Under the pieces are notes generated by a model. It was not told where the DNA came from, made no database searches, and saw only the letters and a program-made list of their open reading frames with translations. From a virus (Duplodnaviria > Heunggongvirae > Uroviricota > Caudoviricetes), in the IMG/VR virus record IMGVR_UViG_2558860288_000010: a stretch of DNA of 52,982 bases, one strand, 5' to 3'. This document shows, one piece after another, positions 10,944-52,982 of this stretch (within the stretch, counting starts at the first letter, position 1; every line of letters begins with the position of its first letter). The position numbers and the translations under genes were made by a program.

Positions 10944-11107
10944 TGGGGGCACATTTCCTAGACCGAACAGAACATGCCCCCGATTGTGCCCCCAATTGTA
11001 TGTTGATTTCAAGAGATAGGGGTTGACGTCAAATGACGAAGAATCGCGTAATAACTATGTTTTTAAAGGGTTTTGTTGATTTGAGATGACTTGGAAATAC
11101 TAAGGGA

Positions 11108-11153
11108 TGGTGCCGATAATAGGAGTCGAACCTACGACCTTCGCATTACGAAT
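11108..11153. repeat. 46-bp exact duplicate of the tRNA-Thr 3' end (att site between the two elements)
   Basis: tggtgccgataataggagtcgaacctacgaccttcgcattacgaat is identical to 51539..51584. Confidence 0.85.
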
Positions 11154-11594
11154 CTGTAGCACCAATCATAACTATCTGTTTTAGCAAGCATTAACCGCAT
11201 TCACTAAGCTATAGTTGATGGCACAAACAGAAAGTTGATGCATGATGTTGTCATGTGTATGTCACAAATACGGCACAACGATCTTCAAACATGTAGCCAC
11301 ACATCCACAGAAGAGCGCAAAGCCTTGCAATCCAGTACAAAGCTTTGTGTGTCTCATTTTTGTCTCACCTTTTATTACGCAAAAAAAGATAAGCCTGAAA
11401 CCAAACGGCGCCATAGGCATGTTAACGGGAGAATTACCTACCAGGAACTTACAAACCGTTTAAATGATGTGGAAGTATTAACATGTAAAATCGGTAACGG
11501 CTGGAAATCATTCAATACTCGCACTATCAAAAGTTCACCAGCCAGCCGCAGCACGTTCTTGCATACGACGTGGCTGCGGCATATCACAAAACGA

Positions 11595-26534: not shown

Positions 26535-28002
26535 CAGGGAGCACTCCTTTATCGTTGGCGGCGTCAGAATCGAACACCAGCCCGTTTTGTCGGTTAAATT
26601 CGGTTTCACGCATTCGCTGGCGTTTGACCTCCTGCGGTGACTGCCCTCTGGCACGGATCCACTCGGCTTCCGTTCCTGCACCACCACGAAGAATGGCCCG
26701 CCATGCTGCAGCCTCTTTGACGGGGTCAATCCACGGCATCACCGGACCAAGATAGGTCGCGTTAAAAAGCGTGGTTTTGTCGATATCAGGCGGGATATCC
26801 ATGTCAAGCAACGCCATTGCCAGCCAGGCGCGGTACACCGGACGGCTGAACTGCCCCACAAACCATTGCTGCAGGACGTTATAACCTTCGTAACTTTCCA
26901 CCAGTTCCTGACGTTGTGCGCTGTAGGTGCCGTTATAGTCACGGGCAATACTGGAATAGCTGCCGCGACTCCCGGCGGCAACCGCCCGCAGTTGCCCGTT
27001 ACGAAACTCATGGAGGTGGACGTTCGGACGGTTTGACTCAACCATGCCCAGATCTTCCCCCGGCGCCAGGTCGTCGAAAATCATGCCTGGCGCAATATCA
27101 AAGTGGCGGTACTTTTGTCCTGAGGGTTTCCAGTCTTCATCCGCCGGAAAGCTGGCGGCATCACCACGCTTGATGTAGAAGCCCAGCGCGGCAGCAATGC
27201 GGGCAGCCACACGTTCGCTCTCTTCGTAGTCCTTAATGTCACCCAGACGGCGGATCACCCCATGAAGCAGACTTATGCCACGTAACTGGTGAAGGCGTTT
27301 ACGCTGGGCAAGGTGCAGCATGTTCTCTGCCGCAATGGTTTTCAGTTCAGCGCTGAAGCGCGTCATACTGGCCGGGTGATATTTGTAAACCCGGTAACCA
27401 ACAGGACGCCCCCAGTCGTTAACGATAATGCCCTGGCGGATCTGCTGCCCCGATGTGCTGTTAAGACTGAACGGGACAAAATCAGCTTCCAGCAGTTCCA
27501 GTGAAAACGGCACTCGGGTTGCGTGCGTCAGTCCGGCAACCGGGCCCCGCACCAGCTGCGTGAACATCTCACCATCACGCAGTGCTGAACGCAGCGCCAG
27601 TCGCTCGGCTTCCGGACGGGTAAACACCCCCGTCACCTCCGGACGCACCGACCATTCCGACCAGAGTGCAGATATCTGTGCTGCAAATTCTTCATGCAGC
27701 TTACCGTCCAGACTGAGCGGTTGCGGCTCCACCTGGATCCCCTGCGCACCAATAACACGTTCTTCCAGCTTATCCAGCAGACCAATCACTATGTCATGGT
27801 CTTCATCCAGTGCCCGTGCCTGCTCACGCAGAGATACGCCAGCCACACCCACCGCAGTATCTGCCGCCCGACTCTCACGTTTTGTTTTGTTCACTCTGGA
27901 GGGGTGCGCCGCCTCGTAGGCGCGAAGAAGCATTCTGTTTCTGGCGCGCGAAACAGCCCACCCTGGCGCAATCGCGCCAAGTGCCCTGTCAAAAATGCCC
28001 AT
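26491..28002 (-). CDS. Portal protein
   Basis: 503 aa, ATG start, between the gpW-like and capsid genes. Confidence 0.75.
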   Translation of the reverse strand: MGIFDRALGAIAPGWAVSRARNRMLLRAYEAAHPSRVNKTKRESRAADTAVGVAGVSLREQARALDEDHDIVIGLLDKLEERVIGAQGIQVEPQPLSLDGKLHEEFAAQISALWSEWSVRPEVTGVFTRPEAERLALRSALRDGEMFTQLVRGPVAGLTHATRVPFSLELLEADFVPFSLNSTSGQQIRQGIIVNDWGRPVGYRVYKYHPASMTRFSAELKTIAAENMLHLAQRKRLHQLRGISLLHGVIRRLGDIKDYEESERVAARIAAALGFYIKRGDAASFPADEDWKPSGQKYRHFDIAPGMIFDDLAPGEDLGMVESNRPNVHLHEFRNGQLRAVAAGSRGSYSSIARDYNGTYSAQRQELVESYEGYNVLQQWFVGQFSRPVYRAWLAMALLDMDIPPDIDKTTLFNATYLGPVMPWIDPVKEAAAWRAILRGGAGTEAEWIRARGQSPQEVKRQRMRETEFNRQNGLVFDSDAANDKGVLPDAANDKPALSRDDD

Positions 28003-28010
28003 GAATGACC

Positions 28011-28226
28011 TTACAGAAAGTTAGCGAGTTTGAAGTTGGTGCCGCGACCGTTGACGGCCTGCCAGCGTTTTTCCCAGTATTCAAGCTCTTTACGAAGTGC
28101 GACGGGATCATGGTTGGTAATGGCGCGCCCATTCACGCCAGTAAAAGACACGCTTTTCCCGTCCAGAGAATCACGATACGCCTGGCGTACCGTGACCAGC
28201 ATCTGCTGGATTTCAGATTTCGTCAT
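28011..28226 (-). CDS. Head-tail joining protein, gpW-like
   Basis: 71-aa ORF between terminase large subunit and portal, as in lambda. ATG with GGAGG RBS. Confidence 0.5.
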   Translation of the reverse strand: MTKSEIQQMLVTVRQAYRDSLDGKSVSFTGVNGRAITNHDPVALRKELEYWEKRWQAVNGRGTNFKLANFL

Positions 28227-30340
28227 AGCCAGCCTCCGTTACCACTGACCCCCAGCCAGCCGCCAGACAGTGGGCTGGCCTGTTCGGTGACGGCAACCGG
28301 AGATGAACGAGCGGATATCGCTTTTTTCACTCCCCTCTCCCCGGGGCGTTCCCCGTCAATAATGTCCGGATTTGTGTCCTGAGATGCCGCCCAGGCAGGC
28401 GGCTGCTCCCAGTCTCGGATTTTTTCGTAACCACGCAGAATAGCGACGGCATGGGCATAGCAGAACAGGTCGAATGCTTCGTTGTTCCCTTTACCTGGCT
28501 TGCGCCATTTTCCGTCGCTGCCCCGCTCCTCATAAGTCAGCTCCTCGTAAAACCACTCACCGAGCCAGTCGGGAAAATGGATATACCCGGCCCCCGGGGT
28601 TTCACGCTCCAGATTATTGCTGAGTTGATCTTTGAGCAGATCGGTCTGCAGCAGATATACCGGTACTTCGCCGCGGGCATCAGCCCGGCGATCGCTTCGT
28701 CCGGTATTATCAGGGTGTGTTCGGGTGATCACTTTCTGGCGACGGGTACTGTCACCTTTTATCAGGTATACCCGTTTTCCCAGACCATCACGGCGGCATG
28801 TGCGCCAGAACTTATACGCATTATCCGTCACACCATCCTCACCCCCACTGTCCACAGCCATAGCCAGCACGGGCATACGGCGGGAAGGATTTGACTGGAG
28901 AGGGTATGTTTTCTCCAGCACATCCGTGATCAGCAACTGCCAGTCCTCAGGGTAAGAGCCCGGATGAATCGTCAGTGCCTCGCCGTTTTCATCACAGCGC
29001 AGGGACTGACGAATGTTATAGCGATCCACCAGCCAGCGTTCGCCGTTCTCACCGTAACCGATAATCTGCACCACAAAACGACGTTTCTTCCCGCCCTGTA
29101 CATCCACCGATGCCAGCAGAAAACGCACCTTCGGTGGTACCAGACGTTTACCGTAGTCCTCCGCCCGCTGCATCAGTACATCAGCCCTGCGCTGTTCGGT
29201 CGCCGCGCGTGGCAGATAAGGTAAGCCCCAGTCAGTGTTGATCACCGTTTTCAGTGTTTCTTCACTGCCTGTGGTTTCATAGTCCTGCTCTGCCGTCAGT
29301 AATTTGTAAACCAGCTGTGCCCAGGTCTGGTAAGCCGCGGCGGGACCTTCCATCCAGAAGGACGCGATGCGGGAACGACGGGCATCACCCGATATATTCC
29401 CGGCTTTATCAATGCTCTGACCTTCCCTGAGCCAGACGCCACGTCCGTTAAGCTCCCGCTTTTTACCAGCTGTGATCACCCCGTTACAGTGCGGGCAGAC
29501 GATATGTGCCGCTTCACTGGCTTTTACCGGATCGGCAATATCGCGGTAACCGGTCATCGCCTCCATAGCAGGCTGAAAGTACCCACCACAGTGCGGACAG
29601 GGCCAGTACCAGCGACGGCGATCACCGCGATTATATAAAGCCAGAATACCGGTAGTGGGTGGCGCTTCATGGGGTGATTTTCGTCGCCATTTGGTATTGG
29701 TGATTTCCCGCCCTGGCGAGCTCTCCACCAGGGTCATGCCCGCCGACATAAATGTGGTGGTTCGTTTTGAGGCCAGCGAAAAACCATCGCCTTCCCCGTC
29801 GATATCCTCCGGAAAACGGTCGTAATCCGTCAGTGCAACGCATTTAAAATCCGAGGATGACATGATGTTGACGGAGGGCCAGCCAATCTTGAGGTAGTTT
29901 CCGGCAAGAAACGTGCGGTCATGAACGTTGTTATCGTTACGCGACGGACTCAGCCTGCATGCCACTTCCGGGCTGACGCGAAATGTTCTGGCCAGACGTT
30001 TTTTGGAGTGTTCACGCGCTTTTTCTTCCGTCATCTGGACGATAAGCATATCCGACGGGTCACACACCACGTTGTACACCACCCAGCCGTCAATCAGCCC
30101 AATTGTTTTACCTGTTCGGGCCGGACCAACAAAAATAACAGCATCATACTCACGTGATGCCAGGCAGTTCATCGGCTCCACGACATAGGGGGCGAGTTGC
30201 GGATCCCATTCGACGGAGTTTCCGACGCCCACGGGAACCCGCATGTACTTATGAACGGCCTCGGCAACAGGCATCCGACGCGGTGCCTTTATGATCCCGG
30301 CGGTATTCTTTCTGACTTCCGCCGCCGTGGCCTGTCGCAT
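28223..30340 (-). CDS. Terminase large subunit
   Basis: 705 aa with an ATPase P-loop-like VGPARTGKT motif; ATG start. Confidence 0.8.
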   Translation of the reverse strand: MRQATAAEVRKNTAGIIKAPRRMPVAEAVHKYMRVPVGVGNSVEWDPQLAPYVVEPMNCLASREYDAVIFVGPARTGKTIGLIDGWVVYNVVCDPSDMLIVQMTEEKAREHSKKRLARTFRVSPEVACRLSPSRNDNNVHDRTFLAGNYLKIGWPSVNIMSSSDFKCVALTDYDRFPEDIDGEGDGFSLASKRTTTFMSAGMTLVESSPGREITNTKWRRKSPHEAPPTTGILALYNRGDRRRWYWPCPHCGGYFQPAMEAMTGYRDIADPVKASEAAHIVCPHCNGVITAGKKRELNGRGVWLREGQSIDKAGNISGDARRSRIASFWMEGPAAAYQTWAQLVYKLLTAEQDYETTGSEETLKTVINTDWGLPYLPRAATEQRRADVLMQRAEDYGKRLVPPKVRFLLASVDVQGGKKRRFVVQIIGYGENGERWLVDRYNIRQSLRCDENGEALTIHPGSYPEDWQLLITDVLEKTYPLQSNPSRRMPVLAMAVDSGGEDGVTDNAYKFWRTCRRDGLGKRVYLIKGDSTRRQKVITRTHPDNTGRSDRRADARGEVPVYLLQTDLLKDQLSNNLERETPGAGYIHFPDWLGEWFYEELTYEERGSDGKWRKPGKGNNEAFDLFCYAHAVAILRGYEKIRDWEQPPAWAASQDTNPDIIDGERPGERGVKKAISARSSPVAVTEQASPLSGGWLGVSGNGGWL

Positions 30341-49212: not shown

Positions 49213-49428
49213 GTGACACCTCAGCAGGAAAACGCCCTTCGCAGCATTGCCCGTCAGGCTAATGCTGAAATCAAAAAAGCCAGGCAGCAGTTTCCGGATA
49301 AAAACGTCGATGACATTTGCCGTAGCGTACTGAAGAAGCACCGCGAAACGGTAACGCTGATGGGATTCACACCGACTCATTTAAGCCTGGCGATCGGCAT
49401 GTTAAACGGCGTCTTTAAGGAGCGGTGA
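49213..49428 (+). CDS. Hypothetical protein (about 71 aa)
   Basis: Probable GTG start at 49213 overlapping the stop of a 27-codon hydrophobic micro-ORF (49133..49216); the track ORF begins at a TTG at 49114 inside the methyltransferase gene. Confidence 0.3.
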   Translation: MTPQQENALRSIARQANAEIKKARQQFPDKNVDDICRSVLKKHRETVTLMGFTPTHLSLAIGMLNGVFKER

Positions 49429-49526
49429 GCATGAAAAACAAAATCATCATGGAGCTACAGGCTCCTTTTTTATTATTCGCATTCACCCTCAAGCGTATTG
49501 ACCAACAATTCAGGGATTAATGAAAG

Positions 49527-49745
49527 ATGGCAGACATCATTGATTCAGCATCAGAAATTGAAGAATTACAGCGCAACACAGCAATAAAAATGCGCCGCCT
49601 GAACCACCAGGCTATATCTGCCACTCATTGTTGTGAGTGTGGCGATCCGATAGATGAACGAAGACGCCTGGCCGTTCAGGGTTGTCGGACTTGTGCAAGT
49701 TGCCAGGAGGAGATCGAACTTAAGAACAAACAATGGGGACTGTGA
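49527..49745 (+). CDS. TraR/DksA-family C4 zinc-finger protein
   Basis: Four Cys in CCECGDPIDERRRLAVQGCRTCASC and the small size typical of phage TraR-like proteins. Confidence 0.6.
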   Translation: MADIIDSASEIEELQRNTAIKMRRLNHQAISATHCCECGDPIDERRRLAVQGCRTCASCQEEIELKNKQWGL

Positions 49746-49792
49746 TGGCCTCAAAGCAGCAAATTTCAACATCGTCCAATTGAGGTGTAAAA

Positions 49793-50071
49793 ATGTTCAG
49801 AATCATTTTTCCTAACACCTGGTACGTCGATCACCACGGCACTCCCTGCAAAATCCTGCGTTCTACCCACAACAAAGTTCACTACATCCGAAAAGGCAGA
49901 ACATGTATCGCCAGCATGTTCCGATTTAATCATGACTTTGAACCTGTGAATAAAGCTGATGCAGATCGGATAGCAGAAGAGATCGAAACGGCAGAACACA
50001 TTAAGAAGTTACGTGACATGCGTTCAAAAAGCAGAGGTAACTATGGAATCATACAGCCTCACACTCGATGA
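49793..50071 (+). CDS. Hypothetical protein (92 aa)
   Basis: ATG with GAGGTG RBS. Confidence 0.35.
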   Translation: MFRIIFPNTWYVDHHGTPCKILRSTHNKVHYIRKGRTCIASMFRFNHDFEPVNKADADRIAEEIETAEHIKKLRDMRSKSRGNYGIIQPHTR

Positions 50072-50487
50072 GGCCTGCCAGCTTCTCAAGATATCCAGAC
50101 CTACAGCAATCATGTCAATCCAATAAATGGAGACTCCAAGTGGAAGAAGAAATCTTCACTCGTGAAGAGGCTGCGTCGTATCTGAAGGTAGACAAAGGCA
50201 CTATCACGCAGTGGATACGAAGTGGACGACTTCAAGCCGCAAAGATAAATCCAGATAAACCTAAAAGCCCATATCGCATTTGCAAATCAGACTGCATTGC
50301 GGCGCTTAAGTCTGTGAGACACAATAGCGCGGTGAATGCGGTTGATGTGCAGGAGGTTAAAGCATGTCAATCAAACTGCGCGGTGGCACATGGCACTGCG
50401 ATTTCGTCGCGCCAGATGGATCAAGAGTTAGACGCTCTCTTGAAACATCGGACAAGAGGCAAGCGCAAGAACTTCACGATCGTCTGA
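50068..50487 (+). CDS. xis: Excisionase-like HTH protein (putative Xis)
   Basis: Central segment REEAASYLKVDKGTITQWIRSGRLQAAKI is a typical excisionase-type HTH. Start uncertain (ATG 50068 or GTG 50140); the 3' end overlaps int by 124 nt. Confidence 0.45.
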   Translation: MRPASFSRYPDLQQSCQSNKWRLQVEEEIFTREEAASYLKVDKGTITQWIRSGRLQAAKINPDKPKSPYRICKSDCIAALKSVRHNSAVNAVDVQEVKACQSNCAVAHGTAISSRQMDQELDALLKHRTRGKRKNFTIV

Positions 50488-51524
50488 AAGCAGAAGCGTG
50501 GAGAGTAAAAAATCTCGGTGAATCACCGAAAAAGCTATTCAAGGAAGCCTGCATACGGTGGCTGCGAGAGAAAGCGGATAAGAAGTCCATTGATGATGAC
50601 AAGAGCATTATATCGTTCTGGATGTTGCACTTCAGAGAAACCATTCTCTCTGACATAACAACAGAAAAAATAATGGAGGCGGTAGACGGGATGGAAAACC
50701 GCCGCCATCGCCTGAACTGGGAGATGAGCCGGGATAGGTGTTTGCGGCTTGGCAAGCCAGTGCCGGAGTATAAACCAAAGCTGGCAAGCAAAGGAACGAA
50801 GACGCGGCATCTGGCAATACTTCGCGCTATTCTCAATATGGCTGTTGAATGGGGATGGCTTGACAGGGCGCCCAAAATATCAACACCACGCGTTAAGAAT
50901 GGACGAATCAGATGGCTTACAGAGGAGGAATCGAAGCGCCTGTTTGCAGAAATTGCTCCTCATTTCTTCCCTGTGGTCATGTTTGCAATCACGACAGGCC
51001 TTCGTCGTTCCAACGTTACAGACCTTGAGTGGTCACAGGTCGATCTGGATAAGAAAATGGCATGGATGCACCCTGATGAAACAAAAGCTGGCAATGCGAT
51101 CGGAGTTCCTCTTAACGAAACCGCATGCCAGATATTAAGAAAACAGCAGGGGCTCCATAAGAGATGGGTATTTGTCCACACCAAACCTGCCTACCGAAGC
51201 GACGGAACAAAAACAGCAGCGGTAAGGAAGATGAGAACCGACAGCAACAAGGCATGGAAGGGAGCGTTAAAGCGGGCAGGCATTAGCAACTTCCGCTTCC
51301 ATGACCTGAGGCATACCTGGGCAAGCTGGCTGGTTCAGTCCGGTGTCTCTCTTCTTGCACTTAAAGAGATGGGAGGATGGGAAACTCTCGAAATGGTTCA
51401 AAGATACGCCCACCTTTCAGCTGGGCATCTCACCGAGCACGCGAGCAAAATCGATGCGATTATAAGTCGCAATGGCACAAATACGGCACAAGAGGAGAAC
51501 GTAGTTTACTTAAATGCGAGGTAA
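50364..51524 (+). CDS. int: Tyrosine integrase (lambda-type)
   Basis: ATG with AGGAGG RBS; catalytic HDLRHTWAS and Tyr in VQRYAHL; ends 15 bp from the tRNA 3' end. Confidence 0.85.
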   Translation: MSIKLRGGTWHCDFVAPDGSRVRRSLETSDKRQAQELHDRLKAEAWRVKNLGESPKKLFKEACIRWLREKADKKSIDDDKSIISFWMLHFRETILSDITTEKIMEAVDGMENRRHRLNWEMSRDRCLRLGKPVPEYKPKLASKGTKTRHLAILRAILNMAVEWGWLDRAPKISTPRVKNGRIRWLTEEESKRLFAEIAPHFFPVVMFAITTGLRRSNVTDLEWSQVDLDKKMAWMHPDETKAGNAIGVPLNETACQILRKQQGLHKRWVFVHTKPAYRSDGTKTAAVRKMRTDSNKAWKGALKRAGISNFRFHDLRHTWASWLVQSGVSLLALKEMGGWETLEMVQRYAHLSAGHLTEHASKIDAIISRNGTNTAQEENVVYLNAR

Positions 51525-51538
51525 CTTATTGATTTAGA

Positions 51539-51614
51539 TGGTGCCGATAATAGGAGTCGAACCTACGACCTTCGCATTACGAATGCGCTGCTCTACCAAC
51601 TGAGCTATATCGGC
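51539..51614 (-). tRNA. thrW: tRNA-Thr (thrW-type), integration target
   Basis: Reverse complement reads GCCGATATAGCTCAGTTGGTAGAGCAGCGCATTCGTAATGCGAAGGTCGTAGGTTCGACTCCTATTATCGGCACCA (76 nt); its 3' 46 nt are duplicated at 11108..11153. Confidence 0.9.
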
Positions 51615-51728
51615 CCTGAAAGGACATGTTCACGAACGTGAATCACGGTGGGCAAGGTTAAAACTAACCGGGCGATGCGTCAATGGCCTTGTGAATCAAA
51701 TGGCTACTTTTGCATCACCCGGTTTTAT

Positions 51729-52982
51729 TTACGCACGAATGGTGTAATCACCAATGCCGATCCACTTGTAAGTGGTCAGTGCTTCCAGCCCCATTGGGCC
51801 ACGCGCGTGGAGTTTTTGTGTGCTTACCGCCACTTCCGCACCCAGACCAAACTGGCCGCCGTCGGTAAAACGCGTAGAGGCGTTAACGTAAACAGCGGAC
51901 GAATCCACTTCGTTAACAAAACGCTGGGCGTTGCGCATATCGCGGGTCAGGATCGCATCGGAGTGTTGTGTGCCGTGTTCACGAATATGGGCGATGGCAT
52001 CGTCAAGATCGCTGACGATTTTGACGTTCAAATCTAATGACAGAAACTCATCGTCATACTCTTCGGCTTTAACAGCAACCACCTTCGCAGGGCCTGCCTG
52101 CAACTGCGCCAGTGCAGCTGCATCTGCGTGTAATGTCACGCCGCTTTCCGCCATTTGTTTGCTTAATGCGGGCAGGAAGCTATCGGCGATGTTTTTATTC
52201 ACCAGCAACGTTTCAACCGTATTACATGTGCTCGGACGCTGAGTTTTCGCGTTGACGATCACTTTTAATGCTTCAGCGATCTCTACACTTTCATCAACGT
52301 AAATATGGCATACGCCTATACCACCTGTGATCACCGGGATTGTCGACTGTTCACGGCACAGTTTATGCAAACCAGCGCCACCACGCGGGATCAGCATGTC
52401 GATGTATTTATCCATACGCAGCATTTCACTGACCAGCGCACGGTCAGGATTATCAATCGCCTGCACGGCACCCGCCGGTAAGCCGCAGGATTTCAGGGCG
52501 TCCTGAATCACCGCCACCGTTGCAGCGTTAGTGCGACACGTTTCTTTGCCACCGCGCAGGATCACCGCATTACCGGTTTTCAGGCACAGCGAAGCGACAT
52601 CAACCGTCACGTTCGGGCGCGCTTCATAAATCACGCCAATAACCCCCAGCGGTACGCGACGACGCTCAAGACGCAGGCCGCTGTCCAGTACGCCGCCATC
52701 GATTACCTGCCCCACCGGATCGGCGAGGTTGCACACCTGACGTACATCGTCGGCAATGCCTTTCAGCCGTGCGGGCGTCAGTGCCAGACGGTCAAGCATC
52801 GCTTCGCTAAGGCCATTGGCTCGCGCGTCAGCAACATCCTGGGCGTTAGCGTTGAGGATGATTTCGCTTTGTGCTTCCAGTTCATCGGCGATTTTTTCCA
52901 GCACGCGATTTTTTTCGCGGCTGGAGAGTTGCGCTAATTTATACGAGGCTTGCTTCGCGGCAATGCCCATTTGTTCCAGCAT
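51729..52982 (-). CDS. proA: Gamma-glutamyl phosphate reductase
   Basis: 417-aa translation matches E. coli ProA as recalled; the ATG is at the very end of the window (52980..52982). Confidence 0.95.

Follow-up and report, generated by a model that had tools for sequence, protein, structure and literature searches.

A 124-nucleotide overlap of xis and int in a thrW prophage follows the standard layout of P22-type integration modules

Introduction

The integration modules of P22 (X04052, BK000583) and ES18, and those of the SfI, SfII, SfIV and SfV type, share a common architecture. In these modules, a gene for an excisionase, Xis, of 115-116 aa is followed by a gene for an integrase, Int, of 386-387 aa, the two genes overlap by 124 nt in a fixed relative frame, attP lies directly downstream of int, and integration occurs at the tRNA-Thr gene thrW. 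The overlap was already annotated in the P22 record X04052 from 1986, in which Xis has 116 aa and Int 387 aa, while full-text searches returned no statement of a 124-bp overlap in the literature. Mattis et al. are said to have purified P22 Xis in its full length in 2008.

Phage lambda has a similar gene order, i.e. an excisionase gene followed by an overlapping tyrosine integrase gene with attP downstream. However, the lambda overlap amounts to only 23 nt including the stop codon (int 27812-28882, xis 28860-29078), and lambda Xis has 72 aa. The flexible C-terminal tail of lambda Xis contacts the N-terminal domain of Int. Because no lambda record is present among the tblastn matches listed for the Xis analyzed here (60 of 177), we treat the lambda xis-int module as a functional analogue and not as a member of the same family.

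Here, we analyze the xis-int module in a stretch of 52,982 nt of viral DNA (IMG/VR record IMGVR_UViG_2558860288_000010; the window). Its closest relatives are HK75, HK446, mEp213, mEp043, mEpX2, ECP1 and SfX, which have Xis proteins 96-97% and Int proteins 99-100% identical to those of the window and share with it the GTG start of xis and the 124-nt overlap. Identity to P22 is about 42% for Xis and about 55% for Int and, by contrast to P22, the window has another xis allele, ahead of which lies a fossil of a P22/SfI-type xis 5' end. The original prediction for this locus regarded the overlap as anomalous and suggested that the C-terminal part of the excisionase-like protein might be either a sequence artefact or a regulatory overlap. 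Based on the data reported here, the window very probably contains a xis-int module of the usual kind, from a P22-type lambdoid prophage that integrates at thrW, with an overlap of 41 codons read in two frames.

Results

Layout of the xis and int genes

The following features are all on the + strand of the window.

50068-50139, +: non-conserved 5' extension of the xis frame, 24 codons; TAA in HK75/HK446, unrelated extensions in homologues
50129-50132, +: GGAG, putative Shine-Dalgarno sequence of xis with a 7-nt spacing to GTG 50140, read from the sequence
50140-50487, +: xis (excisionase / recombination directionality factor), 115 aa, GTG start
50351-50356, +: AGGAGG, Shine-Dalgarno sequence of int, located within xis codons 71-73 and separated from the int ATG by 7 nt
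50364-50487, +: dual-coding overlap, 124 nt, encoding residues 1-41 of Int together with residues 75-115 and the stop codon of Xis
50364-51524, +: int, P22-type tyrosine integrase, 386 aa, ATG start

The sequence and the list of open reading frames bear out the basic observation that an open reading frame of 139 aa on the + strand (50068-50487) and an int gene with a ribosome-binding site and an ATG at 50364 have 124 nt in common. The xis stop codon is counted within these 124 nt, and the int frame is the xis frame +2. At the position of the int Shine-Dalgarno sequence, a purine-rich motif is present in all 17 loci compared. As had also been proposed, the helix-turn-helix (HTH) part of the upstream protein ends well before the overlap: the Pfam domain HTH_17 covers residues 30-75 of the 139-aa frame, i.e. 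residues 6-51 of the 115-aa Xis, while the overlap begins at residue 75.

Xis and Int

The Pfam matches agree with the earlier gene calls of an HTH excisionase-like protein upstream and a tyrosine integrase downstream. The upstream protein passes the cut-offs of PF12728 (HTH_17; 34.8 bits, cut-off 27) and of TIGR01764 "excise" (31.8, cut-off 28.8). The family profile phrog_2907 "excisionase" matches residues 1-115 over profile positions 2-117 of 117 (E=1.5e-51), and the tblastn alignment to P22 covers residues 1-112. By its domain, its full-length match and its position at an overlapping int gene, the protein is a predicted P22-type excisionase (PHROG 2907). In the AlphaFold model, which was built on a shallow alignment, residues 1-60 form a winged-helix HTH (pLDDT 72-87; helices 8-15, 19-28 and 49-60, strand 45-48), and residues 61-115 form a low-confidence tail (pLDDT 40-49) with one short helix over ELDALL. 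The 41-aa part encoded in the overlap is basic, with 7 Lys/Arg and 3 Asp/Glu residues. In a profile search of solved structures, Xis gave marginal HTH matches (6ama/6amk, "putative DNA-binding protein", E ~0.03), and none of the solved relatives was informative on the tail.

Int matches Phage_integrase (PF00589) over residues 184-353 (E=9e-35), and its translation contains the catalytic signature Arg...His-x-x-Arg...Tyr in the segments TGLRRSN, HDLRHTW and RYAHL. The N-terminus, with a putative extension of ~60 aa, is conserved from Met1 onward in 17 homologues (identity 0.61), and the next in-frame start after ATG 50364 does not occur before residue 87. In lambda-type integrases, an N-terminal extension of ~60 aa represents the arm-binding domain.

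The start of xis

From comparison with homologues, we infer that the conserved start of Xis is GTG 50140 and not ATG 50068. GTG 50140 aligns with the annotated xis starts of HK75, HK446 and SfX, in each of which the gene has 348 nt, and the aligned codon in Omnitron is ATG. All 21 aligned enterobacterial database homologues, which come from Leclercia, Enterobacter, Kluyvera, Cronobacter, Pectobacterium, Serratia, Pantoea, Erwinia and other genera, end at a common C-terminus, and 14 of them are exactly 115-116 aa long; the N-terminal extensions of those longer than 116 aa are mutually unrelated. In HK75 and HK446, a TAA located 28-30 nt ahead of the GTG closes the frame, while the window has TCA at this site (50110-50112). 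Accordingly, ATG 50068 was rejected as a conserved start, and the 24-codon extension is probably not translated as part of Xis. Thus, of the open reading frame first described, the stop at 50487 stands, while the start at 50068 is probably over-extended.

The case for ATG 50068 is that it forms an ATGA junction with the stop of the upstream DUF4222 gene (49793-50071, +) and that PGAP uses it. In E. coli RefSeq genomes, PGAP annotates a 420-nt xis (139 aa) at L021 1379-1798 and L022 1316-1735. The PGAP int genes in these sequences (L021 1681-2835, L022 1618-2760) start 6 nt past the conserved ATG, at an ATC, giving an apparent overlap of 118 nt. Both the xis and the int starts in L021 and L022 look like start-site mis-calls.

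The overlap in homologous loci

Searches against phage records gave 203 records with blastn and 177 with tblastn. In 173 of the 177 records, the tblastn match takes in the tail and covers 80% or more of Xis. For comparison, 19 loci from the search were combined with the original P22 record, and both open reading frames were re-derived for each locus by tblastn and frame tracing; 16 of the homologous loci are intact. The relative frame of xis and int is identical in all 16, with an overlap of 124 nt in 12 and 145 nt in four, and Xis identity to the window drops to 33% among them. Like the window, HK75, HK446, SfI, P22, ES18, the Cronobacter phage ENT47670, the Citrobacter phage Omnitron, Edno5, Kpn_RAH1, HK639, BHUENT3 and EhrS_59 have the 124-nt form, while the 145-nt form is found in the Hamiltonella phage APSE-1, Proteus V3, POCJ13 and 2G7b. 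The intact loci include phages of Cronobacter, Citrobacter, Klebsiella, Edwardsiella, Erwinia, Proteus and Hamiltonella. The xis stop codon is formed by the codons cTG Aaa of the Int residues Leu-Lys; in the 145-nt group, this Leu-Lys is replaced, and as a consequence the stop is lost and the xis frame is seven codons longer.

The depositors themselves annotated the 124-nt overlap in HK75, HK446, SfX, SfI, P22 (BK000583, X04052), ES18 and ENT47670, and the 145-nt overlap in APSE-1. In SfX, int is interrupted by IS2, and the 124-nt overlap is still present in the annotation. Comparison with homologous xis-int junctions, which had been proposed as a check, therefore finds the overlap conserved at the protein level, and its description as an anomaly does not hold. 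The overlap is a genuine, long-annotated and already known standard layout of the P22-type integration module.

A fossil xis 5' end at a mosaic joint

Immediately upstream of xis, the window contains a remnant of a second xis allele.

50043-50126, +: fossil 5' end of a P22/SfI-type xis, a 27-codon open reading frame (MESYSLTLDEACQLLKISRPTAIMSIQ, followed by a stop codon) in the int frame

This segment aligns with the 5' part (~22 codons) of xis genes of the P22/SfI/2G7b type (MESYSLTLDEACQLLKISRPTA...). At the DNA level, it is colinear with the xis starts of SfI, 2G7b and P22 to about 50105 and divergent beyond. The fossil has a weak HTH_17 match and its own AGAGG...ATG, and the 24 extra codons of the 139-aa frame are an out-of-frame reading of it. 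In SfI-type phages, the DUF4222 gene overlaps the start of the P22-type xis by 29 nt; from this overlap, ATG 50068 can be explained as part of GAT GAG in the codons of the old xis, read out of frame.

In blastn matches to phages, the left arm stops at 50107 and the right arm starts at 50038-50056. The left arm is SfI/2G7b-like and carries the DUF4222 gene, while the right arm is HK75-like; in other words, left of about 50038-50107, the window differs from the HK75/HK446 group. Because the fossil coincides with this switch, we conclude that it marks a mosaic joint and provided the patch of homology at the joint. HK75 and HK446 bear more decayed copies of the fossil, the fossil ATG is absent in HK446, and the fossil stop is replaced by CAA in E. 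coli 14EC033. With neither its stop nor, in HK446, its ATG retained, the 27-codon frame was rejected as a conserved leader peptide.

Positions 49990-50600 were also compared with complete E. coli genomes. A related segment is present in 3,072 of 5,426 genomes, with at least 80% query coverage in 113, and the best full-length match does not exceed 96.9%. The exact combination of left and right arm in the window appears to be uncommon in E. coli genomes.

Prophage context

The region downstream of int contains the following features.

51537-51587: right copy of the att core, a 51-nt repeat within the tRNA-Thr region
51539-51614, -: tRNA-Thr (CGT), thrW, identified with ARAGORN; the integration target
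51729-52982, -: proA, to the right of the tRNA-Thr gene

The 3' part of the tRNA gene is present as a 51-nt direct repeat at 11106-11156 and 51537-51587, with two mismatches. We presume these repeats to be the attL and attR sites of a thrW prophage of ~40.4 kb that appears to be complete, and the xis-int module lies at its right end, adjoining proA. The attP of HK446 is likewise annotated as thrW-like.

Alternative explanations for the overlap

If the overlap were primarily regulatory, it would control the ratio of Xis to Int through coupled or occluded translation, or a promoter serving int only would be concealed within xis. The location of the int Shine-Dalgarno sequence inside translated xis codons is compatible with this idea, and lambda has the promoter pI within xis. 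However, the searches for such signals gave little in its favor. No conserved RNA structure emerged near the int ribosome-binding site when 11 diverged loci were folded jointly with RNAalifold (four pairs, consensus energy -2.1 kcal/mol), and the single-sequence fold around the int start has a z-score of -0.93; based on these weak folds, we rejected an RNA structure that hides the ribosome-binding site. In crude scans, no sigma-70-like promoter was found in 49400-51700, and the cII/C1-type motif TTGCN6TTGC is absent from the coding strand in and just upstream of xis in the window and in 15 of 16 homologues, the lone case being Edno5, in which it lies 360 nt upstream of xis. These scans, though crude, lend no support to a pI-like promoter within xis. 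Thus, the earlier suggestion of a regulatory overlap gains no RNA structure, promoter or cII/C1-type motif, while the crude scans leave room for regulation, and we consider a primarily regulatory role rather unlikely.

Alternatively, the Xis tail could be translated and functionless, with a frame that stays open because the N-terminal sequence of Int rarely makes stops in it, and with conservation that reflects hitchhiking on Int. The predicted disorder of the tail would fit this possibility. To quantify openness, Int was held fixed, its codons were redrawn synonymously, and the probability that the xis frame remains open for at least 40 codons was determined. This probability is 0.17 for the window and 0.10-0.57 per lineage, so that an open xis frame in any single lineage is weakly surprising and not significant alone. 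However, the product of these values over ~9 lineages gives a joint probability of ~5e-6 if the lineages are independent. Moreover, the 39 tail codons contain no stop in any of 11 diverged representatives, while, in the same relative frame, each of the 248 other int windows of 39 codons that are free of gaps has a stop in at least five of the 11; no other int window is stop-free in all lineages.

The substitution pattern indicates that the Int frame dominates, because the second position is the most variable Xis codon position in the tail (0.44). Similarly, the window differs from HK75, HK446 and E. coli 14EC033 at three to four positions in the overlap, all silent in Int and all changing Xis. 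Yet, in pairwise statistics that come from phylogenetically non-independent pairs and are indicative rather than formal, identity in the tail frame is 0.434 and a regression on Int identity in the rest of the gene predicts 0.284, i.e. an excess of 0.15. In the same comparisons, codon identity at shared Int residues is 0.563 in the overlap, more than in any other 40-codon window, versus 0.38 elsewhere, and the divergence of Int at third positions falls by a quarter, from 0.60 elsewhere to 0.45 in the overlap. These indications suggest that both frames are under selective constraint, with the Int frame dominant and the Xis frame adding to it, and that the Xis tail may be kept beyond the level expected from Int conservation alone. 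Hitchhiking as the sole explanation is, therefore, improbable in our judgment.

Finally, the possibility that the Xis tail stems from an error of sequencing, assembly or annotation, with the true end of xis close to the start of int, can be dismissed as next to impossible. Long same-strand overlaps in prokaryotic annotation are often mispredictions, and Pfam detects no more than the HTH domain at the N-terminus. However, frame and stop are retained in independent sequences from more than 10 genera, homologues down to 33% Xis identity keep the overlap, its frame and a recognizable tail, the PHROG profile takes in the tail, and the tail is conserved beyond hitchhiking on Int.

Discussion

The window very probably contains an ordinary P22-type xis-int module in which one stretch of DNA, read in two frames, encodes both the C-terminal end of Xis (41 codons) and the N-terminal end of Int (41 codons). 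In this model, the N-terminal winged-helix domain of Xis would bind and bend att DNA, while the basic, probably disordered tail would make protein contacts, most likely with Int by analogy to lambda Xis. Int would be translated independently from its own ribosome-binding site. If so, the overlap would mainly be a compact coding arrangement and not a switch.

We also considered that dual coding serves as a linkage device, such that mosaic recombination cannot part the Xis tail from the N-terminal surfaces of Int. If this were true, the DNA-binding domain of Xis and the upstream genes could be swapped, while the presumed contact surfaces of the Xis tail and Int would never be separated. In the Xis homologues P0008 and P0009, an HTH domain of the window type, nearly identical to that of the window from residue 1 to 64, is joined to a tail that matches the Omnitron tail in every residue. 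These chimeras suggest recombination near the start of the overlap, with the tail traveling with int and not with the HTH domain. The recombinant alleles in P0008 and P0009 and the fossil joint at the xis 5' end fit the linkage idea and do not prove it, and we regard it as unlikely.

For the biology of these phages, the overlap has little significance because it belongs to the usual arrangement of a phage module that has been well studied. For annotation, the implication is that long overlaps in P22-type xis-int modules should not be trimmed automatically, and that, in E. coli RefSeq genomes, the gene models for a "helix-turn-helix domain-containing protein" of 139 aa probably begin 72 nt too early. 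The quantitative two-frame constraint, read as indicative, provides a clean, small example of dual coding.
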